Below, in pieces: positions 4,233 to 35,101 of a DNA stretch of 48,037 nucleotides (position 1 is the first letter of the stretch; every line of letters starts with the position of its first letter). The stretch comes from a virus: IMG/VR virus record IMGVR_UViG_3300045594_000630; one strand, 5' to 3'. The notes beneath the pieces are model-generated. The model saw only the letters and a program-made list of their open reading frames with translations. It was not told where the DNA came from and ran no database searches. The position numbers and the translations under genes are program-made.

Positions 4233-4682
4233 ATGGGTGACTATTATTCCGCGTTCGTGTATGACAAGGGAGATCATCGTGACCGAGCCAGAGAGATCGA
4301 GCTGCATAAGAACTATGCATTCATCGAATTCATTCTCTGCGAGGAGCCGCACCCTAGGAATGACAGATGGAGCGTCTTCTCCGATTACTCTACTTGGAGC
4401 AAGATCAGGGACTTCATTCTAGATTACGGATCGTCATCATGGCAGCGGCAGCAAGTGCTGTCATATGATGGCACGAGGCGCAGCATCGGCTATGACAAGA
4501 TGATCGATGGGGAGCGCGTCGTGACCATGCCCATCGCTGAAGACAGCTGGATCGGCTATTACTGGTGGAGAGACGGGAAGTTCTGTCCCAATGATCTGGC
4601 GAGAATTGACGCAGAGGTGAATAGGCTGTTGAAGCGAGTCGTTCCAGATCGTGTACTCATTGAATTCAGACAAGTCTACTGA
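4233..4682 (+). CDS. Hypothetical protein
   Basis: ORF 4215..4682; ATG at 4233 preferred over the TTG; has its own promoter. Confidence 0.7.
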   Translation: MGDYYSAFVYDKGDHRDRAREIELHKNYAFIEFILCEEPHPRNDRWSVFSDYSTWSKIRDFILDYGSSSWQRQQVLSYDGTRRSIGYDKMIDGERVVTMPIAEDSWIGYYWWRDGKFCPNDLARIDAEVNRLLKRVVPDRVLIEFRQVY

Positions 4683-4758
4683 ACCCTTTGATAAGCCGTT
4701 AAGAATATGATAGCGATTGATAACTCGCTGTATATCTTAGTATTGCCATCAGGTAAGA

Positions 4759-4847
4759 GTATTCCCCGCGTTGCGGGGTTGAACCTGTATTGCCCGCGTT
4801 GCTAGGTTGGACCTCTGGCGGTATTCCCCGCGTTGCGGGGTTAATCA
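4759..4847 (+). CRISPR. Orphan type I-E-like CRISPR mini-array or repeat cluster
   Basis: GTATTCCCCGCGTTGCGGGGTTGAACCT at 4759-4786, a degenerate copy at 4787-4814, CTGGCG, then GTATTCCCCGCGTTGCGGGGTTAATCA at 4821-4847. CCCCGC/GCGGGG hairpin as in I-E repeats; AT-rich upstream region; no cas genes in the window. Confidence 0.65.
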
Positions 4848-4881
4848 AAGCATGTGATGACGTACCCGAATGATGAATCGA

Positions 4882-4910
4882 TTGACTCCTCCCGTCATTC
4901 ATAGTATGAT
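4882..4910 (+). promoter_or_regulatory. Near-consensus sigma70/SigA promoter
   Basis: TTGACT-17 nt-TATGAT upstream of the ORF at 4950. Confidence 0.75.
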
Positions 4911-4949
4911 TGGAATCACATGAATGACATGACGGTGAGGAGTCCGGCA

Positions 4950-5225
4950 ATGATCAACAATGACGACATTGAAGAGACGAACGATCTGTGCGAGGGCATA
5001 CTCGCAGGCGATGAAAGCTATCAGTTCCACACAGATCAAGACATGGACAACATTGAGAGTATGGCATTCTTCATCGATGAGAATGGACTCGGTGACCTTA
5101 TTGACATTGATGATGGCACGCAGGTGACCTTATCATATCGCGGACACGTCATTGTCATGAATTCGCACGGCCTCGGTGACTTCTATTCTCATGAGATCTT
5201 GTTCACCGTTGATCCCGAAGACTGA
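4950..5225 (+). CDS. Small highly acidic protein (91 aa)
   Basis: GAGGAG SD then ATG at 4950; D/E-rich with no Lys and one Arg. Confidence 0.75.
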   Translation: MINNDDIEETNDLCEGILAGDESYQFHTDQDMDNIESMAFFIDENGLGDLIDIDDGTQVTLSYRGHVIVMNSHGLGDFYSHEILFTVDPED

Positions 5226-5380
5226 ACGAACGGGTATTCCACGCTGAAGGGTGAATCTTTCGCGCAGATCTGTCACGGCCGAATCCATCTTGCATTCACC
5301 TCGTAATGATGTTAGCTCGTCTGATATCCATCATATGCTATTCCACAATTGTTCAGATCATGTAAAGATAAGGCGTAAAG

Positions 5381-6649
5381 ATGGACGGTAAGGACTTTCT
5401 CTCGAAGATAGCCGTGATGTCGGATAAGGTTTCAGATCAGAAAGATCTTGCCGTCACTGAGGAGGCTACCAAGACCGCCTTCATATCCCCGTTCTTGCGA
5501 GATATTCTCGGATTTGATACCAACGATCTCAATGAGGTCATCCCTGAGTACACGGCAGATGTTGGTATCAAGAATGGAGAACGCGTAGATTACGCCATAA
5601 AAGTGAATGGCAGAATAGAGATTCTTGTTGAGGCTAAGAAGATATCCGAACCGTTGAACGTTCATAACTCCGGACAGTTGTTCAGATACTATGCAGTGTC
5701 GAATGCTCGTATCGGTATCTTAACGAATGGACAGTACTGGGAGTTCTACACAGATCTTGAGAAGCAGAATATCATGGACGACAGACCATTCATGATTCTT
5801 GATCTTCTTGATGTTGATGCAAAGCTGATCAATCCAATCCGTAAGCTAACGAAGACTGAATTCGACATTGATGGACTCATCACTGTAGCGCGAAGAATGA
5901 AGTATCTTACCCAGTTCGAATCTATCATCAATGAGAATATCGACAATCCATCAGACGATCTTGTTAAATCACTTGGACATCATGTCATGGATGTTATGAT
6001 CACGAGACCGAAGAGGGAAGAGCTGCGGCCGATCGTACTGCAAGCATTGAAAGATGTCATCGCTGATCGTGTGAACGATCGTCTTGAGGGCGCTATCAAT
6101 GATGTCCAATCAGACGTGAAGCACGTGATCATTGAAGACAATGACGATGATGACATCGATAACAATAACGGCATCGTGACGACAGAACTCGAGCTTGAGA
6201 CGTACAGGGTCATCCAGTCGATATGCTGCGAGATAGTTCCGGCATCAAGGATAACGATAGCCGATAGAAAGCAATACTGTAACATTGTTCTTGATAACAA
6301 CAGCCATAAGATCATCGTGAGAATAGTGTCTAATAGCTTGGAGAACAGAATCCTCTACCCAGACGGAGATGACCCGACATGGAATCGATGCCCGTATTTT
6401 GTGTACAAGGACTTGAACGACATCTATAATCATAAGGACATCATACTGAATTCTCTTAGATTCAGATTAGGGATATCGAACAGCAATGATGATCCCAGTA
6501 CAGGCAATGGATCTGATACGGATACGAAGAATGGCGTTCAGAACGCTGACAATCATGAAGACATCAGTGAATCCAATATCGTTCAAGATGATCATTCGAG
6601 ACAAGCTGATCCAACGACAACTCCAGTGATCAATCCGTTCATGCTATAA
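5381..6649 (+). CDS. Stand-alone HsdR N-terminal-like (PD-(D/E)xK) restriction endonuclease family protein
   Basis: TEEATKTAFISPFL..LGFD...EVIPEYTADVGIKNGERVDYAI...ILVEAK...QLFRYY...GILTNG. Confidence 0.8.
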   Translation: MDGKDFLSKIAVMSDKVSDQKDLAVTEEATKTAFISPFLRDILGFDTNDLNEVIPEYTADVGIKNGERVDYAIKVNGRIEILVEAKKISEPLNVHNSGQLFRYYAVSNARIGILTNGQYWEFYTDLEKQNIMDDRPFMILDLLDVDAKLINPIRKLTKTEFDIDGLITVARRMKYLTQFESIINENIDNPSDDLVKSLGHHVMDVMITRPKREELRPIVLQALKDVIADRVNDRLEGAINDVQSDVKHVIIEDNDDDDIDNNNGIVTTELELETYRVIQSICCEIVPASRITIADRKQYCNIVLDNNSHKIIVRIVSNSLENRILYPDGDDPTWNRCPYFVYKDLNDIYNHKDIILNSLRFRLGISNSNDDPSTGNGSDTDTKNGVQNADNHEDISESNIVQDDHSRQADPTTTPVINPFML

Positions 6650-6759
6650 CATTCTTATCAATCACTGCTCTGTCAATTGTTTGCTTCATAAGATCTAAGC
6701 GATATCTTACGTTTAATGGCAAGATCAATTGTCAGAAATCAATAATGGAGGAATGAATT

Positions 6760-7038
6760 ATGGCCATTTCTAATGAACATATTAAAGATGCACTTGCGAA
6801 ACATGGAATTTTATATTCTATATCTGATGACAAATCACAAATAATAGCTTCCAATTTGATTATTTTTATCAATAAGAATAACAACCCTCTTTATAACACT
6901 CTAAAAGAGTATGCTAATAATTTAGACAGTCTTGATAAGAGCAAGACATTGTTCATTAAAGATGATAATGATGCTACATCGGATGATCTTGATAGGTATG
7001 CTGACGTTGTAGTGAAAAAGCTGTATAACGTTAAATAA
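6760..7038 (+). CDS. Hypothetical protein, AT-rich
   Basis: GGAGG SD, 92-aa ORF, followed by a hairpin. Confidence 0.7.
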   Translation: MAISNEHIKDALAKHGILYSISDDKSQIIASNLIIFINKNNNPLYNTLKEYANNLDSLDKSKTLFIKDDNDATSDDLDRYADVVVKKLYNVK

Positions 7039-15033: not shown

Positions 15034-15132
15034 CGGTCGCATCGAATCCGGTTAGAATGACAGATTGCCGCTATGATCATACGATCGTATGGTATTATGA
15101 TCCGCATCAATGGTCGTAGGAGGATATGTCCA

Positions 15133-18100
15133 ATGTCATCAGATGGATCCGGGTTCGTCAATCTTCACATGCACTCGCATTACTCGATACTTGACGGGTA
15201 TGCGACACCGGAGGAGTACATCAGAAGAGCCGCGCGGCTAGGCCAGACCGCCCTCGCCCTGACTGATCACGGCAACATGTACGGTATCCATGAATTCATC
15301 AAGACGGCGAGGGATCTCTCCAAGAGCAAGGATAAGAAGGGTCATCCGCAGGAACCGATCTTCGTGAAGCCGATAGCAGGCATGGAAGCATATGTAGCCC
15401 CGTTGAACCCGGATGGAGCCAGATGCAAGCAGCCTGTCTTCTATGGAGGCGAGGATCAACGCTCTGATGACGTGTCCGCCGGGGGAGCGTATCTGCATCT
15501 TACCCTGCTGGCCATCAATGATGTTGGCTTCCATAATCTTATCAGACTGTCCACGGAGTCATTCCGCAGGGAGAACTTCTACAAGAAGCAGCGGATCGAC
15601 CAGGACATGCTTGCTCGATGGAATGAGGGCGTCGTTGCGTTCACCGGCTGCCCGTCCGGTGAGGTGCAGACCCGTCTCCGCCTTGGTCAGGTCGATGAGG
15701 CCTATGACTACGCTCGCCGGATGAAAGAGCTGTTCCCCGGAAGGTATTACGTTGAGGTCATGGAGCATCATATGAAGCGAGATCTTGAACGCGATCTGCT
15801 CCCGATGCTGGTCAAGATGGCTTCAGATCTTGACCTTCCCCTCGTCGCCACGAACGACTCTCACTACTCCGCTCCGTCAGATGCTATCCATCAGGAGGAG
15901 ATGCTCTGCATCAATCAGAAGGGCATGGTCAAGGATGAAGATCTTCAGGGGAACAAGATCTCCAGACCCGTCAACATGACTGACGCGAAGCGCGACGAGG
16001 GTGGACCCCGATTCGCATTCGACGGTGATGATTACTATCTGAAGTCGGAAGAGGAGATGCTGAAGACCTTCCCTGACGACAAGTACCCCGGAGCTGTCTC
16101 CAATACGGTGAAGATAGCGAACATGGCCGCTGACTGGTGGTCGATGGCCGAAGATCTTGGCAAGAAGCTCCCGCATGCTCACGGAGGGATGGTCGATGTC
16201 CGTGAGCCTTCAGGCAAGGGGTTCGCGTACGGCTCTCACGGATCTCATCCGTCAGGATGGTCGCAAAGCGTTGACCCTGACGTCCAGAAGATGATCGATG
16301 ACGGGGACATAGCCCTCGGACCGTACGATCTTAGCCTGAACAAGGGCATCAGACCGAAGATAACGATACCCGATGGATGGACTGAACGCAGATGGTTCCA
16401 GAAGAAGATCAATGACGGATTCGAGAATCGTAGGGTGGCAGCAGGTGATCCACCCGCGGTTCTGAACGAGGCGAAGAAGAGGATCTCAACTGAATTCCCG
16501 GTGTTCGCAGACAATGACTTCATGCAGTACATGCTGGTCGTCCAGGACTACATCAACGCAGCCCGGTCGAAGGGCATCGCCGTCGGATACGGCAGAGGAA
16601 GCTGCGGAGGATCAGAGATAGCGTATGATCTTGACATCTCGAGAACTGACCCGATCCGTCACAACCTGCTGTTCGAGAGGTTCTTGAACCCTGAACGTGT
16701 CTCCCCACCCGATGTGGACACTGACTTCCAGGCCAGCCGTAAGAACGAGGTTCTTGTCTATGCGAAGCAGAAGTACGGTGCGGACAAGGTTGCGAACATC
16801 ATCACGTTCGGAACGTTCGGATGCAAGACTGCGTTCAGAGACATGGCCAAGATCTATACCATGGCGCCATTCGAGGTGAACAAGATCTCGAAGCTGATCC
16901 CTGACGGATCAACCGAGGAAGGCCAGCCGACGATGGCGGCCATGTATGATCCGTCGTCGAAATGGTACGCGCAAGCAGCTGATTTCAGGAGGGCCGTGGA
17001 GGCCGGTGGCGACCGATGGTCTAAGATCGGCAAGTCAGCAGCGGCCGTCGAAGGCAGGGTGCGGTCAACGGGAACGCATGCTTGCGGCGTGATCATGAGT
17101 GACGAGCAGATCGTGAACCGCGTCCCGCTGTGCTGGGAGAGCGATGAGAAGAAGGCCGCCAGCAACGTCTGGGTGGACTGTAAGGTCCAATGGGGCTATG
17201 AGGCCTGCGAATCCCTCGGACTTATCAAGATGGACTTCCTGAGTCTCTCCGATCTTGACGTGGTGAAGAACACGCTGAGCAACATCGAGGGCATCAATGA
17301 GAATGTGGATGAGCTTGCCAGGTCAGGATCCGTGTCAGCATCTGTCGTCAAGCAGTTGAGGGCGAAGGGTCTGGAGCCGCCAGATCTTGATGCTCTCGTC
17401 CATGGTCCGATGGATGACAAGGCCACATATGAGATGCTTGGACGGGGTGATTCCGTAGGATGCTTCCAGCTTGGGAGCGACGGAATCCGCGACCTGCTCC
17501 GCATGATGAAGCCGACCGTGTTCGACGACATCGCGGCCGTGAACGCTTTGTACCGACCAGGTCCAATGAAGGCGAATGCTCACATCGCGTACGCAGACCG
17601 GAAGAACGGCAGGGAGCAGGTCTATGTGATCGATCCGATTCTTGACAAGGCGTTCAAGGGGACTCCGGTTGAGGACATCTTGAAGCCGACATGGGGATGC
17701 ATGGTGTACCAGGAGCAGGTCATGCAGATCTCGCAGAGACTATGCGGCTACAGCCGTGGTGGAGCTGACTCCCTCCGTAAGGCGATCGGCCATAAGATAC
17801 CTGCGGAGATGGAACGGAATCACGCCAAGTTCGTTGACGGCGCCATGGCGAACAACGCTGATGGCAAGTATGCGTACACGCGGGAAGACGTGGAGGCTCT
17901 CTGGCAGAAGATCGATGCGTTCTCGAGCTATGGCTTCAATAAGTGCGCCGATGGCTCAACAAATGTCTATGATGAATATTGGCGAACAATAAACATTGTA
18001 GACCTTCTTAAGCGTTGGAATAATGGTGATCGTGACATCAAAATCATGTCCATGTGGGAGGATGGAACAATACGACCTCATCAAGTTAAGAATGTCGTGT

Positions 18101-20340
18101 ATTCCGGGAGGAAGCCAGTCTATAAGATTACGCTCGAAAGCGGACGGTCAATCACCATCACGAAGGAACATCGTCTATTGACCACAAATGGCTATGGAAC
18201 GATAGATGACGGATTGCTTGCCGTAGGGTCTACGCTTATTACAGACGATATTGATCATGGATGGCCAGTGTCTGATGAAGATCGGAAACGCAGATCTAAT
18301 TATATGAAGACTCTTAACACAAGTGATGAGCAGAGAGATCGTGATGCTAAGAGAATGATCATTACACAATCCAAAATCACGCATGAACAAAGATGCTTAC
18401 ATCAACAAATGATTCAGAAGATTCATCCTCACAGAGGAGACAATAGCGTTGTGGCTATGCATAATAAGCTAAAGGAGCTCAGAAAAGACCCTGTATGGGT
18501 AGCTTCATATGCGCAAAGTCTTGCCACTAGGGGTCATGAAGGGTATAGAGGATATGGTCATGTGACCGCATTGTCTGATGGAAGACTATGTGATTCTTAT
18601 GTCGAGGCTGCTGCTGGAGAATATTTGCTATCTCGTGGAGTTGACTTCGAGCTTCATAAGCCAATTCCGAACCCGGTGAACGGTACCGTACGAATCTGCG
18701 ATTTTTACGCTGATGGGATCTACTTCGAGATGGATGGACTTAGTAGAGGAGAGAAGTGGTTCAGAGACAATAAATATGGGAACGATGTTCCGTTCGTCTA
18801 TATGACGCCAGAAGATTATATAGAAAAAATAGACGCTGCCTTAACGAGCATCCATGTTCACAATGGTGACAAGATCGTTTCGATATCGAAATATCCTCTT
18901 GATCATAGGGTCTATGACATTGAGATGGAACTTGACGGACCATCTAATTTCGTTGCGAATAAGGGCATCGTATCTCATAACAGCCACGCGGTGTCTTACG
19001 GTATCGTCGCGTACGAGACCGCGTACTTGAAGGCGCATTACCCTGCGGAGTTCTATGCGGCTCTGATGACGAACGACATCGGTGATAAGGACAAGCTGTA
19101 CGCACTGCTGCAATCATTGAGATCTCGTGGACTCACCGTTGGATCCATCAATGTGAACAATTCGACGAACGAGATCAACGCGGCCGTCAAGACCAAGCCG
19201 GGCGATCCGGACATCGTATTCGGATTCTCCATGATCAAGGGAATGAGTGACAAGGTCGGTGAGGAGATCGTGAAGGCCCGGAAGGCGAATGGAGGCACGT
19301 TCTCATCACTGGATGATTTCGTGAGGACGATCCCTGAAAGCATCTTGAGCGAGAAGATCATCAGGAATCTTGCTGATGTCGGGGCGTTCGAATGCTTCGG
19401 GCTGGGTAGGCGAAGGATATCTGAAGACGCCGAGAACATCGTGAAGAACGAGAAGAAGCGTAGATCTGTGAAGAGCAAGATGACCGGATCACTCTTCACA
19501 GCCGTCGGCCAAGCCCCGATAGGGAATAGCCATATCAAGCTCCCGGAGCTTGAGGAGCTGCCATGGACTGAGAGGCTGAAGAAGGAGTCAGATCTGATTG
19601 GCATGACGATCTCTGGCGAGCCGATTGATCATGTTGGACCCGGACTAGACTGGATCGTCTCGAATGAGCCTGATTACCGGAGCTATGTCCAGATCGATAC
19701 GCTTGCAGCCAGGAAGGCGGCCTTGGACGATGACAGCAATGGTGGCGGTGCAAGCGGGAAGAAGAAGAAGGAGATACTGACCGTCGGATTCTTTGAAAGC
19801 ATCGTGAAGAAGAAGCTGAGAAGCGGTGAAGGCTCATGGTACTCGTGCATCGTGAAGTATGATAGGAAGTCGATCAGTGCAAGGATCAGTGGATCAAGCG
19901 CTGCCGAGATCATCGAGTCTCTGGGCCGTGAACCAGATCTGTACCATGTCTATCTGATCCGTGGATCACTCGGATGGAACAATGATCTCACCATCGAGTC
20001 GCTAGACACCGTTGAGCTCGACCATGAAGGCAGGGCGCCGTTCGTCGTCAGGATCAAGGAGAAAGCACTGTCCAGGAAGAACGTCCAGGAGCTTCAGGAG
20101 AGGTTCAAGCATGATAAGTCTGCCACCGTTCCAGCATACTTCAACATAGCCAAGGAGAATGCTGACGGCAGCATGAACTATGATACGATGATGCGATGCG
20201 GGAAGGCGAATCTGACCACTGAATCGATCATTGAATATGAGAGGCTGGTCGGAAGGCAAAGATTGATGTCATGGAAGCAGTACTTCACCAGAAAGACCGT
20301 TGCTGATAAGAGCCGTAAGGATGACCAATCCGGGTCGTGA
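15133..20340 (+). CDS. dnaE: DNA polymerase III alpha subunit with intein
   Basis: PHP motifs HMHSHYSILDG, LTDHG, ATNDSHY; GRGSCGGS, LLFERFLNPERVSPPDVDTDF, THACGV, KMDFL, YQEQVM, YGFNK/SHA; AGGAGG SD favours ATG at 15133. Confidence 0.96.
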   Translation: MSSDGSGFVNLHMHSHYSILDGYATPEEYIRRAARLGQTALALTDHGNMYGIHEFIKTARDLSKSKDKKGHPQEPIFVKPIAGMEAYVAPLNPDGARCKQPVFYGGEDQRSDDVSAGGAYLHLTLLAINDVGFHNLIRLSTESFRRENFYKKQRIDQDMLARWNEGVVAFTGCPSGEVQTRLRLGQVDEAYDYARRMKELFPGRYYVEVMEHHMKRDLERDLLPMLVKMASDLDLPLVATNDSHYSAPSDAIHQEEMLCINQKGMVKDEDLQGNKISRPVNMTDAKRDEGGPRFAFDGDDYYLKSEEEMLKTFPDDKYPGAVSNTVKIANMAADWWSMAEDLGKKLPHAHGGMVDVREPSGKGFAYGSHGSHPSGWSQSVDPDVQKMIDDGDIALGPYDLSLNKGIRPKITIPDGWTERRWFQKKINDGFENRRVAAGDPPAVLNEAKKRISTEFPVFADNDFMQYMLVVQDYINAARSKGIAVGYGRGSCGGSEIAYDLDISRTDPIRHNLLFERFLNPERVSPPDVDTDFQASRKNEVLVYAKQKYGADKVANIITFGTFGCKTAFRDMAKIYTMAPFEVNKISKLIPDGSTEEGQPTMAAMYDPSSKWYAQAADFRRAVEAGGDRWSKIGKSAAAVEGRVRSTGTHACGVIMSDEQIVNRVPLCWESDEKKAASNVWVDCKVQWGYEACESLGLIKMDFLSLSDLDVVKNTLSNIEGINENVDELARSGSVSASVVKQLRAKGLEPPDLDALVHGPMDDKATYEMLGRGDSVGCFQLGSDGIRDLLRMMKPTVFDDIAAVNALYRPGPMKANAHIAYADRKNGREQVYVIDPILDKAFKGTPVEDILKPTWGCMVYQEQVMQISQRLCGYSRGGADSLRKAIGHKIPAEMERNHAKFVDGAMANNADGKYAYTREDVEALWQKIDAFSSYGFNKCADGSTNVYDEYWRTINIVDLLKRWNNGDRDIKIMSMWEDGTIRPHQVKNVVYSGRKPVYKITLESGRSITITKEHRLLTTNGYGTIDDGLLAVGSTLITDDIDHGWPVSDEDRKRRSNYMKTLNTSDEQRDRDAKRMIITQSKITHEQRCLHQQMIQKIHPHRGDNSVVAMHNKLKELRKDPVWVASYAQSLATRGHEGYRGYGHVTALSDGRLCDSYVEAAAGEYLLSRGVDFELHKPIPNPVNGTVRICDFYADGIYFEMDGLSRGEKWFRDNKYGNDVPFVYMTPEDYIEKIDAALTSIHVHNGDKIVSISKYPLDHRVYDIEMELDGPSNFVANKGIVSHNSHAVSYGIVAYETAYLKAHYPAEFYAALMTNDIGDKDKLYALLQSLRSRGLTVGSINVNNSTNEINAAVKTKPGDPDIVFGFSMIKGMSDKVGEEIVKARKANGGTFSSLDDFVRTIPESILSEKIIRNLADVGAFECFGLGRRRISEDAENIVKNEKKRRSVKSKMTGSLFTAVGQAPIGNSHIKLPELEELPWTERLKKESDLIGMTISGEPIDHVGPGLDWIVSNEPDYRSYVQIDTLAARKAALDDDSNGGGASGKKKKEILTVGFFESIVKKKLRSGEGSWYSCIVKYDRKSISARISGSSAAEIIESLGREPDLYHVYLIRGSLGWNNDLTIESLDTVELDHEGRAPFVVRIKEKALSRKNVQELQERFKHDKSATVPAYFNIAKENADGSMNYDTMMRCGKANLTTESIIEYERLVGRQRLMSWKQYFTRKTVADKSRKDDQSGS
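17944..18981 (+). mobile_element. Intein (346 aa) in DnaE with an internal PD-(D/E)xK-like endonuclease
   Basis: YGFNK|CADGST ... ITITKEHRLLT (block B) ... VYDIEM...NFVANKGIVSHN|SHA; lower GC than its flanks. Confidence 0.93.
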
Positions 20341-28219: not shown

Positions 28220-29125
28220 ATGGACGTTTTCACACCGAAGCTTATAGGACTGCTGTTCTTCACCATGATCATCCTCATAGGCTATGCTTTCACCGTGCAC
28301 AAGTCGTCCGTGGACGCGAAGTTCAACACCCTCGAGAAGTCGAAGGGCATGACGAAGTATCTTGCGCTCCTCGGCCGCGAGACCGTGAAGATCATTCCTG
28401 ACCGCATCGTGCGGACGAACAGGGTGAAAGAGGGATCAATCACCGCGCGTCTTAGACGGGCCGGCAATCCGTGGGGCGTGACCGCAACCGAATTCGCTGT
28501 TCTCAAGATCGGCTCGGCCGTGGCTGGCCTCATCCTTGGCGTGTTCTTGTGGTTCGTTCTTAAAGACTACATGCCATTGCCGATCTATGTCTTCATCCTC
28601 GCCACCGGTGCATTCGGCTACATCTATCCCGACCGGGTCTTATCCAAGAAGGAGAAGCTGAGGGTCATCGCGTTCAGGAAGGAGCTCCCTGAGGCTCTTG
28701 ACCTTCTTGTAGACTGCATGTCCGTGTCGAATTCGATCGAGGCATCGATCCCCAAGGTCACCCCGCTGCTTAAAGAGGGGATAGTCAAGCAGGAGTTCGA
28801 GCAGGTCTGTAAGGATCTGAGAGCAAAGCGTGGAGTCATTGATGCCCTCACTGACATGGCCGAACGATCGCCTTCGCCCGACATCGAAGCGTTCGTGAAC
28901 ATCATCGTCCAGGCCAGGCGTGTCGGATCGGACATGACGAAGGCACTTGAACGCAGATCGAAGACATCTCGCCAGGAGTACATCGCCCTGCTTGACACGA
29001 GGATCGCATCACTTGAATCCAAGATCATGGCCATGCTGATGCCGACAATGGTTGGAGCGCTGGTCTGTGTAGCCGTCGGACCGTCACTAACATCCATCTT
29101 CGAAGCCCTCGGAGGTGCGATCTAG
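28220..29125 (+). CDS. tadC: Tad pilus platform protein (T2SS F family, TadC-like)
   Basis: RLRRAG, TM pair, GYIYPD, FRKELPEALDLL, ALTDMAER, C-terminal TM. Confidence 0.8.
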   Translation: MDVFTPKLIGLLFFTMIILIGYAFTVHKSSVDAKFNTLEKSKGMTKYLALLGRETVKIIPDRIVRTNRVKEGSITARLRRAGNPWGVTATEFAVLKIGSAVAGLILGVFLWFVLKDYMPLPIYVFILATGAFGYIYPDRVLSKKEKLRVIAFRKELPEALDLLVDCMSVSNSIEASIPKVTPLLKEGIVKQEFEQVCKDLRAKRGVIDALTDMAERSPSPDIEAFVNIIVQARRVGSDMTKALERRSKTSRQEYIALLDTRIASLESKIMAMLMPTMVGALVCVAVGPSLTSIFEALGGAI

Positions 29126-29200
29126 CGAACAGCATTGGACCATGTCACGGTCTGATATCTCTACCATGGAATCATTCATCGTCATTTAAAGGAGAAACGG

Positions 29201-30700
29201 ATGGCATTCGAGAATATCAAGAGGGAGCTGCAATCCAATCTTGATTACAATCATGTTCTGTTCAAGAACAACGATCAATCATTGGGGGACTACGTCATTC
29301 TCATCGATAATGGCGCTGTCATCGGTGCATACAACACGTCACCAACAGGCAGATTCAAGATGACGACAAGAGCAGGATTCAGCATCGACAAGGAGATCGC
29401 GCAGACCTCGACAGATCAGGGCGCGTTGAAGATCAAGCTCATCGACAACCCTGACGTGCTCACCGAATGGAAGGAGAACTACGTCGTCTCCGTTCTTGCC
29501 GAGCTGTCGGAAGCCGAGGTAGAGCCGGCGGTCGGGACGAACGAGCCGGTGAAGGACGACGAGAAGGCCACTCTGATCGACCCGGTCAGTCTTGACGACA
29601 TCGAGTACGCTGTGAACGAGGAGCTGAAGAATCAGGAGATCGTTGACCAGAAGATCGGTCTTGACGACTTCTCGAACGTCACGTTCAAGCTTCTTAACGA
29701 TTTCATCCCGTCAAGTGACGAACAGAACTTCGTGAAGCTTGCCACATCCACCGGGAAGGACATCAACAGTCTGCTAGGATTCTCCAACGGATTCCTGCTC
29801 AGTAAGATCTTGAATGCATCGGTGGCCTTGACCCTGAACGGATCCATCGAGTACGCCAAGCTGGTCGGCACCTCCGCCGGGGACAAGATCTTCATCAAGG
29901 CCGAAAGGCCGGTCGAGGAAGACGACAATGAGGACTCCGTAAGCCAGTACGTTGATGATCATCTCGCCGATGGTTCAGACAATGTTGGAACCCAGTCGAT
30001 CGTCAAGGAAGGATTCGGTGACGACGATAATGAGTCCGATGCTGATGACAGATCTGACGACACGATGCCGCTTATTGATCTTCCGCATGAGGCGCCGGCT
30101 GAAGAGACTGAGCCCGAACCTGAATCCACCGATGACAGCACTGAGGACGAACCGGCCGACGTGCCAGATCTTAGCGTTCCGCTGCTGCAGCCGGTTCAGA
30201 TCGGTGATCCGAATGAGCTTACGGCTCTGAACATTACGGGCCAGTCGACCACAGACGCTGTCACCGATGCAGACAGCCAGGTAGATGAAGATGATCCGTA
30301 TGCTGGTGATGGTGACGCGGAAGCCGAGGCCATGCTTGACAGCATTGAGAGCAAGCATGGTGACGACGTCGACTCGCTCGTGTCTGCCGTCGAGCAGGCT
30401 AAGCAGAAGCTGGAAGAGCTGAAGGCCAGGAAGGATGACGTCGACAACAAGATCGCAGATCTTCCGGTCGAGGAATCCGAGCAGATCAGCAAGGAGATCG
30501 ATTCCCTGCGGGAGGATCGTAAGGAACTTGATGACAGGATCAATGACCTCAGATCTCAGAAGGTTGATGTGGACAGTCAGATCAGTGACGCTAAGAAGCG
30601 CAAGGCTGACGTCGATGAGAAGCTAGCTCATAAGGACGAGCTTGAATCTGAGCAGACTGACCTCGCCGCTAAGATCGAGACCCTGGAGAACGTGCTCTGA
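29201..30700 (+). CDS. Acidic protein with C-terminal coiled coil
   Basis: AAGGAG SD; heptad-rich C-terminus. Confidence 0.8.
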   Translation: MAFENIKRELQSNLDYNHVLFKNNDQSLGDYVILIDNGAVIGAYNTSPTGRFKMTTRAGFSIDKEIAQTSTDQGALKIKLIDNPDVLTEWKENYVVSVLAELSEAEVEPAVGTNEPVKDDEKATLIDPVSLDDIEYAVNEELKNQEIVDQKIGLDDFSNVTFKLLNDFIPSSDEQNFVKLATSTGKDINSLLGFSNGFLLSKILNASVALTLNGSIEYAKLVGTSAGDKIFIKAERPVEEDDNEDSVSQYVDDHLADGSDNVGTQSIVKEGFGDDDNESDADDRSDDTMPLIDLPHEAPAEETEPEPESTDDSTEDEPADVPDLSVPLLQPVQIGDPNELTALNITGQSTTDAVTDADSQVDEDDPYAGDGDAEAEAMLDSIESKHGDDVDSLVSAVEQAKQKLEELKARKDDVDNKIADLPVEESEQISKEIDSLREDRKELDDRINDLRSQKVDVDSQISDAKKRKADVDEKLAHKDELESEQTDLAAKIETLENVL

Positions 30701-30724
30701 TCTGACACGAGGCATTAGGCGCAG

Positions 30725-30756
30725 GGTGGCCGTTGATCATGAGGTCAACGGCCATC
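30725..30756 (+). terminator. Hairpin
   Basis: GGTGGCCGTTGATC-atga-GGTCAACGGCCATC. Confidence 0.55.
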
Positions 30757-30778
30757 GTCATATTGGGAGGACGCAAGA

Positions 30779-31303
30779 ATGAGTGACAATGAAGATGTAG
30801 AACCCGTGGTCATCAACGTGTACACGAGCTTCTTCAAGAGGGATCTGCAGATCTATGCTCTTGGTGACATCCGATTCCAGAAGCCGAAGTCATTGAAGGC
30901 TGTTGGATACACGCTTGCATTCATGTTCTTGTGGTCAGGGCCGATGTTCGCGCTTATCGGACCGGCCAGGGTCATATCGAACATCGTCTGGGCGTTCATC
31001 ACGTTCGGGCCGCCGGTCATCATGGGCATGATCGCATCAAAGCCGGTCTTCCATAACAAGCCTCTTATCAAGGATCTCATATCGATCTTCAGATACTTCA
31101 ATCATCCTAAGATGTACACGGACTTCCAGTCATATGACGCACCGGACTACGCTGATCCGAGCTTCACGATGTGGATAGCGGATTGGGATTGCTATGGTCA
31201 GGAAGAGGAGGATCTTGATGAGCCCGACGGTGGATACAAGACCGTGGTCAGGAAGCGCCGTAAGGATGCTATCCATAAGGTCGGCCGCCGCGGTAAGAAA
31301 TGA
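30779..31303 (+). CDS. TcpE-family (VirB3-like) conjugal transfer membrane protein
   Basis: VYTSFFKRDLQIYALGDIRFQKP, two TM segments, HNKPL; directly upstream of the VirB4-like ATPase. Confidence 0.65.
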   Translation: MSDNEDVEPVVINVYTSFFKRDLQIYALGDIRFQKPKSLKAVGYTLAFMFLWSGPMFALIGPARVISNIVWAFITFGPPVIMGMIASKPVFHNKPLIKDLISIFRYFNHPKMYTDFQSYDAPDYADPSFTMWIADWDCYGQEEEDLDEPDGGYKTVVRKRRKDAIHKVGRRGKK

Positions 31304-31333
31304 TCATACCGGCCCTGTGAATATCTTACTGTC

Positions 31334-32542
31334 ATGGCGAATAAAGACATCCAATGGAAGGGTCCGGTCATAGGACTTAACCAACAGGGGTACCCGACAC
31401 CGGTATTCTATGATCCCCATACGGCTATCAACATGAAGTCAAGGTCTGGCGGCGTCATCATCACGGGATCTCCCGGATCTGGCAAGTCACAGCTCGGCAT
31501 GAATCTTGCCATGATGAGCGCACTTGCCGGCAAGAAGACGATCTATGTTGACCCTAAGAATGATGCGCTTGGCCTCATCGAGCTTCAAGACGAGCTTGAC
31601 GGCCATCTGCAGATAAAAGATCTGAACGAGGGCAAGAAGAACGGGTCCATGGACCCGTTGATCACCGAACAGGATCCGGCGGACAAGGTCGCAAAGACCC
31701 AGTCACTTATCCATATCTTGGTCGGAAATCTTAAGGATGAGCAGGAGATCTATCTCCCGAACAAGATCGTTGACGTTGCTTACAGCGCTGAGCCGTCCAT
31801 GTCCCTGCTCGTCCAGCGACTGCTGAGGGATGAAAGATCTAGCATGGCGGCCATAGGGGCGAAGCTCCAGGGCATCGAGCAGGCTGACCCTACCATGGCA
31901 GGATTGATCTTCAAGAAGGGCCATGAGAAGACGGTCATTGAAGATCTGGAGGATGGACTCACCGTCATCACGGTGCTTGGCCTCAAGATGCCGTCAGCTG
32001 ATACCGATCCGCAGTCATACAGCTCTAAGGAGAGGCTGTCCATCGGTATCATGTATCTTATCGTGGAGTTCCTCCTCAAGTCCATGCAAGATCCAGCGCA
32101 CCATCTTGAACCTAAGACCGTTCTTATTGACGAGGCGTGGGCGTTCATCGCGTCGGAGAGCGGTCTTGAGGCCGTAAAAAGCTTGTTCAGGCTCGGAAGA
32201 TCAATGAACACGACCTGTATTCTCATGACGCAGAACATCTCAGACTTCGCAAGATCAAGCGGCGGGAGAGACGGTGAAGGAAATGGATCACTCTTGAACT
32301 CTGCTGCGACAAGGTTCGCGTTCAGAGCTGAAGACGACAATGAAGCCCGTCTGCTCTGCTCTAGTCTCGGGATCAGTTATGATTCATTCGGTGAAGACTT
32401 CGCAAGCATGTTGCCGGGCGTCTGCGTCATGAAGGACTATATCGGCAGAGTGAGTAGGGTCTACATCTTACAGCAGAACGCGAAATGGAAGCATGCATTC
32501 GAGACCAACCCATTGAAGAAGCTACAGGGGATGAAGCAATGA
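31334..32542 (+). CDS. VirB4/TcpF-like conjugation ATPase (ATPase domain only)
   Basis: ITGSPGSGKS, YVDPKND, LIDEAW, RLGRSMN, MTQ, RFAF, MKDYIGRV. Confidence 0.8.
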   Translation: MANKDIQWKGPVIGLNQQGYPTPVFYDPHTAINMKSRSGGVIITGSPGSGKSQLGMNLAMMSALAGKKTIYVDPKNDALGLIELQDELDGHLQIKDLNEGKKNGSMDPLITEQDPADKVAKTQSLIHILVGNLKDEQEIYLPNKIVDVAYSAEPSMSLLVQRLLRDERSSMAAIGAKLQGIEQADPTMAGLIFKKGHEKTVIEDLEDGLTVITVLGLKMPSADTDPQSYSSKERLSIGIMYLIVEFLLKSMQDPAHHLEPKTVLIDEAWAFIASESGLEAVKSLFRLGRSMNTTCILMTQNISDFARSSGGRDGEGNGSLLNSAATRFAFRAEDDNEARLLCSSLGISYDSFGEDFASMLPGVCVMKDYIGRVSRVYILQQNAKWKHAFETNPLKKLQGMKQ

Positions 32543-34183: not shown

Positions 34184-35101
34184 GTGGACATGGATTATGG
34201 ATCATCTGCAGCAATCGAAGGAGTCATGACACCGGCATCGAATACGATCAAATCGACCTGCATCTTCGCTGACGGAGGATCAGTTACGATCCGCATACAG
34301 GATCTCATGACCCTTCAGAACAAGTACACGGCGTCAGTGAAGATCCGTGACCATGATGACCTCAATGAGTTCATGGCCGACGCATACCAGCTGCTTGCAG
34401 ACTCGCCGGCATCGAAAACGATTGACCTCATTGTCAGCACCTCGGTGAAGAATGGCAAGATCAGGAAGCCGCTCCTCGGCGTGAACGATGAAGATCTGTT
34501 CATCAACTACGGGATGTGGCTGAACGCTCGTAAGATCAAGATCATTTCCGCAGATGACGCCATGGCCGTCGCCGGCTGGGAGAAGATCGGATACGGTCTC
34601 ACCGCTCGGCCGAACAAGCAGATTGAATGGTCAAGAACGGGACGGCTGCTAGCACTGCAATGCTATCATGATCATGTCGGGATCGGTCTGATGGATGGAG
34701 GGCGCCTGATCAATGGCCTGTCCTTCCCTGATGACGACTATACGATGAATCAGTGCGCTCTGGTCAAATCATCGGACACTGATGACGGACGATACTACCG
34801 ATGGTCATTGTCTAATCTTGTCAAGCAGGCGATCACTGACTGGTCGCCGGACTCCGTTCTGGTGTCTATTGACTCTACGGACAAGAAATACATGATCGGG
34901 AACACGGATGAGTACACCGTCCCCGTCCATGTGGTCACGTCAGGTGATGACAGATCAGATCTGCTGGCCAATGGAGCTACCATGATCAATCATCGTGAAC
35001 TATTCGGATGGAAGCCAAGATTCCTGCAAGACGCTGACGAACGGACCAGACGTGAAGATCAGATGATCGAGTACGAGTTCGAAGATGCTAGCAAATGCTG
35101 A
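34184..35101 (+). CDS. Hypothetical protein
   Basis: 305-aa ORF within the operon. Confidence 0.7.
   Translation: MDMDYGSSAAIEGVMTPASNTIKSTCIFADGGSVTIRIQDLMTLQNKYTASVKIRDHDDLNEFMADAYQLLADSPASKTIDLIVSTSVKNGKIRKPLLGVNDEDLFINYGMWLNARKIKIISADDAMAVAGWEKIGYGLTARPNKQIEWSRTGRLLALQCYHDHVGIGLMDGGRLINGLSFPDDDYTMNQCALVKSSDTDDGRYYRWSLSNLVKQAITDWSPDSVLVSIDSTDKKYMIGNTDEYTVPVHVVTSGDDRSDLLANGATMINHRELFGWKPRFLQDADERTRREDQMIEYEFEDASKC

Follow-up and report, generated by a model that had tools for sequence, protein, structure and literature searches.

Mobile genetic elements are known to carry solitary CRISPR repeats (Racr), cr-like RNAs directed at promoters (Cracr), and mini-arrays directed against the genes of rivals. 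Racrs rely on repeat mimicry on a mobile element against the Cas6 or Cas7 of a cognate system; type I-E Racrs have been shown to work, and Racrs form aberrant sub-complexes (Camara-Wilpert et al. 2023, PMC10651486). In one case a Racr and an Acr gene lie on a single bicistronic RNA. Racrs are by definition solitary; a unit that has a partial repeat less than 100 bp away is dropped by SRUFinder (PMC10651486). Cracr arrays are repeat-spacer-repeat units that lie on mobile elements outside a cas locus and without an adaptation leader; maturation by a trans-acting Cas6 is predicted, as is loading of the effector with a guide to the element's benefit (Liu et al., bioRxiv 10.1101/2024.10.29.618823). 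Their spacers copy those of the host CreR/CreA mini-arrays (PMC10120712) and have PAM-proximal matches of at least 9 nt to cas or creT promoters; type I-E examples exist, and the arrays often lie beside small anti-CRISPR genes (bioRxiv 10.1101/2024.10.29.618823). Virus mini-arrays hold one or two spacers, lack cas genes, and share their repeats with a system acting in trans, with the spacer directed at the ordinary genes of a related, rival element and the Cas proteins supplied by the host (Medvedeva et al. 2019, PMC6858448; reviewed in PMC11656645). Reports of a crRNA guide directed against the CRISPR repeats themselves were not found, and the closest case was the protein-guided insertion of Tn7 into arrays (PMC11837452).

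The locus described here lies in a 48,037-nucleotide stretch of DNA from IMG/VR (hereafter the window). An earlier note made from its sequence alone had proposed an orphan type I-E-like mini-array preceded by an AT-rich region, in which two repeats 62 nt apart enclose a 34-nt spacer that is itself a hairpin-broken copy of the repeat. These components were all recovered, as follows, where G001 denotes a sister element and coordinates are those of the window:

4683-4758, plus strand: AT-rich stretch 5' of the first repeat, 37% GC over 76 nt
4759-4786, plus strand: R1, a complete 28-nt type I-E repeat, identical at 28/28 positions to the consensus of G001 arrays A1 and A2
4787-4814, plus strand: R2, the repeat-like part of the spacer, 24/28 identical to R1, hairpin abolished
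4815-4820, plus strand: 6-nt tail CTGGCG, which completes the 34-nt spacer and gives the canonical 62-nt R1-R3 spacing
4821-4848, plus strand: R3, hairpin intact, positions 1-22 identical to R1 and to the G001 consensus

Positions 4759-4848 are therefore occupied by R1, the abutting R2 with its 6 nt, and R3, and the starts of R1 and R3 (4759 and 4821) are 62 nt apart. In R1 a 6-bp GC stem (4764-4769/4773-4778) with a 3-nt loop is followed by the 3' tail TTGAACCT, in place of which R3, identical to R1 at 24/28 positions overall, has TTAATCAA as its last 6 nt. R2 departs from R1 at four repeat positions, of which 6, 17, and 18 fall inside the 6-bp stem and 24 outside it, and the calculated folding energies are -11 kcal/mol for both R1 and R3 versus -2.8 kcal/mol, without a stem, for R2. 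A 19-nt core pattern with up to three mismatches allowed matched only the R1, R2, and R3 sites in the 48 kb and nothing in 100 shuffles. The GC content of the window as a whole is ~52%, versus 37% in the 76 nt upstream of R1, where the sequence GTATTGCC at 4740-4747 forms an 8-nt trace common to the start of R2. An independent Logan assembly (L059) has the same sequence at this locus, base for base, which rules out an assembly artefact. That contig (Logan SRR16378848, short-read) breaks exactly at the first base of R1, window position 4759, as would be expected if the sample holds other arrays with the same repeat in which the next spacer starts with GTA; two spacers with this start occur in G001.

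The mini-array is intergenic and its flanking genes are co-directional. An 83-aa minus-strand ORF (4699-4950) extends over it, but as the only 'homologues' of its product are translated G001 CRISPR repeats, we consider this ORF spurious and do not annotate it as a gene; the small ORF upstream of the mini-array has no relatives in IMG/VR and, with the start codon assigned here, no recorded entry, and an Rfam scan of positions 4500-5100 returned chance microRNA-like matches only. An intergenic site between co-directional genes would suit a role that does not involve Cas proteins, with the GC hairpins serving as a terminator or insulator or the repeats as a homology patch for recombination with arrays, a possibility raised for solitary repeats (Faure et al., cited in PMC10651486). 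However, no terminator-like site was found at the mini-array, no U-run lies 3' of either hairpin, and such roles would require neither exact identity to a CRISPR repeat, including in the flanks of the hairpin, nor a 62-nt period. We consider a role of this kind very improbable.

The repeat belongs to a complete type I-E system on the sister element. G001 is an IMG/VR contig of 419,707 bp on which the repeat core occurs ~55 times, with three arrays of 62/63-nt period and 75 extractable spacers, 63 of them 34 nt and 12 of them 35 nt long. One array lies directly 3' of a complete, Pfam-confirmed I-E operon (cas3-cse1-cse2-cas7-cas5-cas6e-cas1-cas2), and R1 equals the repeats beside this operon at 28/28 positions, which bears out the proposed type I-E assignment. 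Among GTDB species-representative genomes, in contrast, the exact repeat core was absent, and leaving the loop free gave seven isolated single matches and no array; scans of metagenome contigs with the repeat core and the NERD protein returned nothing, and the window DNA had no match in phage and plasmid collections. The closest cellular Cas7e proteins are actinobacterial, at 45-50% identity. By its 28-29-nt length, stem-loop, 8-nt 3' tail, and identity to cas-linked repeats, the repeat is that of a type I-E array, and the 62-nt period and 34-nt spacer fit the constant spacing of the G001 family. The conserved leader of such arrays is missing: the 76 nt upstream of R1 aligned to four G001 leaders and to the leader of a second relative (L053) with scores at the level of shuffled sequence, versus 106-189 for the G001 leaders against each other.

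G001 and the window are collinear over ~50 kb at 25-80% amino-acid identity, in the order ParA, NERD ... dnaE, NucS, SNF2, Tcp-type conjugation genes, RecA, and DnaG, with DNA identities of 71% in dnaE and 76% in NERD. Cas7 of the G001 type (99-100% identical) was found in JGI Ga0455790 and Ga0455795 and in Logan runs SRR16378546/7, and the element of the window in Ga0455796 and SRR16378848, placing the two in consecutive JGI sample numbers and neighbouring SRA runs. In the type I-E system of E. coli, the last position of the repeat derives from the PAM. The same position in G001 units (n=75) is T in 45, C in 28, A in one, and G in one, a variability as expected if it is PAM-derived there as well. 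The bases that precede R1 and R3 in the window are A and G, which together occupy the last position in only 2/75 G001 units.

The earlier note had reported no cas gene in the 48 kb, and this holds: Pfam scans of the ORFs in the window identified none, and tblastn with the eight I-E Cas proteins of G001 found no cas gene, remnant, or pseudogene fragment. The window belongs to a larger element, of at least 350 kb, as identical copies of its proteins occur on contigs of 262,079 bp (Ga0455796_000023) and 349,703 bp. This element may itself be incomplete, at 350 kb versus 420 kb in G001, and cas genes could lie on it outside the window, so the mini-array is an orphan within the window and probably within the element as a whole. 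Profile scans of the window revealed replication genes and Tcp-type conjugation genes; the latter include TcpE, a VirB4/TcpF-like AAA_10 ATPase, and a T2SSF-like protein (28220-32542), a set whose sequences point to a Gram-positive conjugation apparatus. By gene content the element resembles a giant conjugative plasmid more than it does a phage, although its relative is filed in IMG/VR.

The size of the element makes it conceivable that the mini-array serves a distant cas operon of its own, and G001 offers a parallel, with two arrays situated 90-240 kb away from its single cas operon and no fewer than six scattered repeat-like units or mini-arrays. Against this, none of the 120 best Cas7e relatives lies on a contig of 262,079 or 349,703 bp, the conserved leader is absent, and no PAM-proximal guide match of 9 nt or more was found to anything but repeats in the window. 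A guide that targets repeats would in addition endanger the element's own arrays, and we judge service to a distant operon to be improbable.

To trace the origin of the mini-array, three relatives were compared across the variable island between NERD and dnaE, namely G001, the window, and L053, a contig of 10 kb encoding a Cas7e with 58% identity to the G001 protein. In G001 the island reads HSDR_N gene, cas operon, leader, array, and dnaE. In L053 an upstream array, of which the contig includes the end and whose repeat is nearly identical, precedes an HSDR_N gene by ~370 nt; cas3 to cas2 come next, then a short leader and a second array. The order in the window is mini-array, an acidic ORF, HSDR_N gene, a 92-aa ORF, a type III methylase, a Res subunit, further genes, a zeta toxin, and dnaE. 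Two features of the window bear on the comparison:

5234-5258, plus strand: psiR4, an eroded fourth repeat, 21 matches and 3 gaps
5381-6649, plus strand: HSDR_N-domain gene, synteny anchor, 56% identical over 216 aa to the HSDR_N protein of L053

The HSDR_N gene of L053 lies between its upstream array and cas3, and the 56% identity of its product to that of the window (versus 27% between the window and the HSDR_N encoded before cas3 in G001) indicates that the mini-array occupies the place of the L053 upstream array. The local alignment score of psiR4, 12, equals the maximum of 4,742 background windows, of which the 99.9th percentile is 10; it lies ~400 nt from R1-R3, with identity down by a quarter and three indels. 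Together with the GTATTGCC trace, psiR4 shows that the array was once longer. On this comparison of sequences, the mini-array is probably the remnant of an array whose cas operon gave way to a type III restriction-modification system, and that it is a genuine type I-E mini-array and a remnant by origin appears to us nearly certain. The earlier note had set its proposal against an ordinary array that has collapsed. As an account of origin, collapse is supported by the ordinary array beside a cas operon at the syntenic spot in L053 and by the erosion of psiR4, and these findings go part of the way towards refuting that proposal; what was left may nevertheless have gained a new role, as decoy or retargeting RNA.

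The locus could accordingly be an inert young relic, the still undecayed end of an upstream array after recent loss of the I-E cas operon, and possibly the scar of autoimmunity. CRISPR arrays are a known acquisition hotspot of the E. coli type I-E system, and Cas1-Cas2 would on this account have taken a repeat-like spacer from such an array, with self-targeting perhaps driving the loss of cas. The ordinary array upstream of an orthologous HSDR_N gene and cas3 in L053, the cas operon and array within the same island in G001, and the traces of a longer, eroded array all fit this account, as does the failure to recognise a leader or promoter. The 34-nt length and exact period of the spacer fit true acquisition by Cas1-Cas2 from an array, and a degenerate, hairpin-broken repeat, changed also at positions 17-18, ends array A1 of G001 at its trailer end. 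Stern et al. are said to have reported in 2010 that self-targeting spacers are associated with degraded CRISPR loci and cas loss. Such spacers share with the present one a target of the carrier's own kind and the loss of cas, although the target here is a repeat and the flanking repeats are perfectly preserved. This preservation speaks against the relic account, as do the distribution of changes in R2 and the lack of any remaining cas pseudogene fragment.

R1 and positions 1-22 of R3 are identical to the G001 consensus at 50/50 positions, while conserved genes of the window differ from those of G001 by 24-29% at the DNA level. Under uniform neutral decay the probability of such identity is 0.75^50, or ~6e-7, and beside an eroded psiR4 it cannot reflect decay of this kind but calls for selection or for an event in the recent past. 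R2 contains all four departures from the consensus, and R1 and R3(1-22) contain none, for which the chance is ~0.017. Type I-E Cascade flips out every sixth base of the guide (6, 12, 18, 24, and 30), leaving it unpaired. This rule has also been applied to mini-arrays (PMC10120712). The mismatches of R2 lie at guide positions 6, 17, 18, and 24, three of which (6, 18, and 24) are unpaired in Cascade, suggesting that pairing with repeat DNA would stay nearly intact; the probability of at least three of four mismatches at unpaired positions is 0.0047, a value that is post hoc and hangs on the 8-nt handle register. These three changes, together with that at 17, also destroy the Cas6e hairpin. To judge by its sequence, the guide looks like a copy of the repeat that has lost its processing site and kept nearly all of its effective pairing to repeat DNA. 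The confinement of all four differences to R2 and the concentration of three of them at unpaired positions (P ~0.005) count against an inert relic, as does the 50/50 identity next to psiR4, and we regard that account as a good possibility that falls clearly short of an even chance.

Cas6e of E. coli cuts at the base of the repeat stem and leaves an 8-nt 5' handle. In alignment with this E. coli handle the R1 tail shares AACC at -5 to -2; guide position 1 is thereby set at 4787, and the following product would result:

4779-4840, plus strand: predicted crRNA-like product of 62 nt, from the E. coli Cas6e cleavage rule

This product would consist of an 8-nt 5' handle (4779-4786), a 34-nt guide (4787-4820), and a 20-nt 3' hairpin (4821-4840), in keeping with the normal-length crRNA that the earlier note had foreseen and with the 34- and 35-nt spacers of the G001 arrays. 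A promoter scan found no sigma-70-like or promoter-like site upstream of R1 on the plus strand, and expression would thus need read-through from the upstream gene.

Scanning all of G001 and the window with the guide seed identified CRISPR repeats only, plus one 10-nt match in dnaE that resembles chance. Against the ~85 repeats of G001 the guide matches at 24/28 positions, and 22-26 of the 29 guide positions that pair in Cascade are complementary. Neither the R1-R2 junction nor an R2 20-mer matched anything in IMG/VR, that is, no outside protospacer was found. The 75 G001 spacers gave chance-level matches and no protospacer in the window, G001, or INPHARED phages, and hence yielded no PAM.

We propose, tentatively and as somewhat less than an even chance, that the mini-array has been maintained in functional form and works in trans, either as a decoy or as a retargeting guide. 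The remnant of an array that once flanked an I-E cas operon, later replaced by the type III restriction-modification system, would in this proposal share a cell with a cognate I-E system, for example the one found on sister elements of the same reactors. The locus would be transcribed either by read-through from the gene upstream or from a promoter that escaped the scan, and Cas6e supplied in trans would cut 3' of the R1 and R3 hairpins and spare the hairpin-dead R2, freeing one canonical 62-nt crRNA (4779-4840) able to build a full Cascade. Since the guide mimics a repeat, it would at the least occupy Cascade uselessly and withdraw the effector from real crRNAs. It might further retarget the complex, pairing with repeat DNA and bringing Cascade, and possibly Cas3, to those places in rival arrays where a spacer ends in a PAM. 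Taken to its extreme, this would be a 'poison guide', a repeat-mimicking crRNA, Cas6e-resistant through changes that lie for the most part at positions unpaired in Cascade, that the rival's Cascade loads and that turns it onto the rival's own arrays, so that pre-crRNA transcription is blocked or Cas3 shreds the rival replicon; the carrier would escape, having no cas genes and no PAM beside its own repeats. This stronger version we think unlikely.

Activity in trans is suggested by the identity of the repeats to those of a cognate system, their 50/50 conservation, the mismatch pattern of R2, and a period and spacer length like those of the G001 family. The A and G before R1 and R3, rare at what would be a PAM-derived position, point the same way, as do the presence of a sister I-E system in the same sample series and the precedents of Racr and Cracr. 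Against it stand the lack of a promoter-like site upstream of R1 on the plus strand, and the synteny with L053 and the eroded psiR4, which mark a remnant that could simply be young; cas genes of the element outside the window would likewise count against it.

By analogy, the mini-array is in its working most like viral Cracr arrays and mini-arrays. With Cracr it shares the succession of repeat-like, spacer-like, and repeat-like parts outside a cas locus, the missing adaptation leader, and the predicted maturation by Cas6 in trans; however, its guide is full length (34 nt) and matches only the repeats in G001, at 24/28 positions rather than in a short partial match. As the scan of G001 and the window gave no promoter-directed seed match, it lacks the property that defines a Cracr. 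With Racr it shares repeat mimicry on a mobile element, here one with conjugation genes, and a repeat identical to that of the I-E system on G001. Yet three repeat-like units within 90 nt are not solitary, and with two intact repeats at array spacing the mini-array should form a complete Cascade rather than the aberrant sub-complexes of Racrs. Like virus mini-arrays, it is a cas-less array with very few spacers on a mobile element, and its repeats equal those of a system that would act in trans. It differs from virus mini-arrays in that the only match of its guide is to the CRISPR repeats of a rival and the only known cognate system is on that rival. If active, the locus would offer a compact way to turn the immunity of an array-bearing competitor on itself, in a contest between sister giant plasmids, with a simple design rule in which mutation of positions 6, 18, and 24 loses the hairpin and keeps target pairing. 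If a relic, it documents the exchange of an I-E system for restriction-modification within one defence island and may preserve a self-targeting spacer that accompanied the loss of cas.

Between R3 and psiR4 lies a short gene that offers a further parallel with the Racr whose RNA includes an Acr gene:

4929-5225, plus strand: acidic ORF, 98 aa in the JGI call, 91 aa if translated from the ATG at 4950

Its 91-aa product contains ~24 Asp/Glu and one Arg, and a promoter-like site (4882-4910, 10/12) precedes it. The protein belongs to no Pfam, PHROG, or PADLOC family, and its AlphaFold model (mean pLDDT 44.8) is unusable. The same domain recurs N-terminally in proteins of 259 aa encoded by two phage contigs of IMG/VR (L015 and L016), at 45% identity over the full-length alignment and 47% in the best tblastn segment, with no CRISPR repeats near the gene on either contig. 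From its context, we regard the acidic ORF as a candidate anti-CRISPR or DNA mimic.

The HSDR_N gene lies directly before cas3 in both G001 and L053. We rejected it as a cas-associated gene, as the gene in cellular Actinomycetota is found within prophage-like regions that lack cas genes. HSDR_N together with an ORF of ~92-94 aa (5381-7038 in the window) recurs in prophage-like regions of Bifidobacterium and Coriobacteriia (L060-L063); the ~92-94-aa ORF is the partner in two of three genomic contexts examined, and a 143-aa bPH_1 protein takes its place in the third. HSDR_N and its small partner are possibly an uncharacterised defence pair.

The repeat-like units of G001 outside its arrays lie at 17749, 64206, 65636, 264113, 314361/314298, about 343246/343183, and 388720. 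Among them are an empty array, consisting of a full leader and one repeat, and two one-spacer mini-arrays with weakened hairpins; others are in the 5' untranslated regions of two divergent genes. The distribution is suggestive of a giant plasmid with its own set of cr-like regulatory RNAs or of Cas6e sites. The layout of the 64206 unit resembles that of the mini-array, but as the two share only one derived base we do not claim homology. The first 9-10 bases of the spacer in the mini-array at 314333 match a repeated motif at 35061, 381311, and 376849 that is preceded by CATC, and a one-base variant of this motif precedes the leader both at array A3 and at the 17749 unit. The motif is a possible operator of a cr-like RNA and a possible hint of a PAM ending in C. 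The 'direct terminal repeat' of G001 (1-1146 and 419307-419707), on which its IMG/VR completeness mark rests, is a CRISPR array that runs across the contig ends, and the occurrence of the same spacer at both ends is consistent with a circular molecule. Finally, the dnaE gene of the window (15073-20340, 1755 aa) contains an intein (Pfam Intein_splicing, residues 996-1303), while its 1405-aa orthologue in G001 does not.
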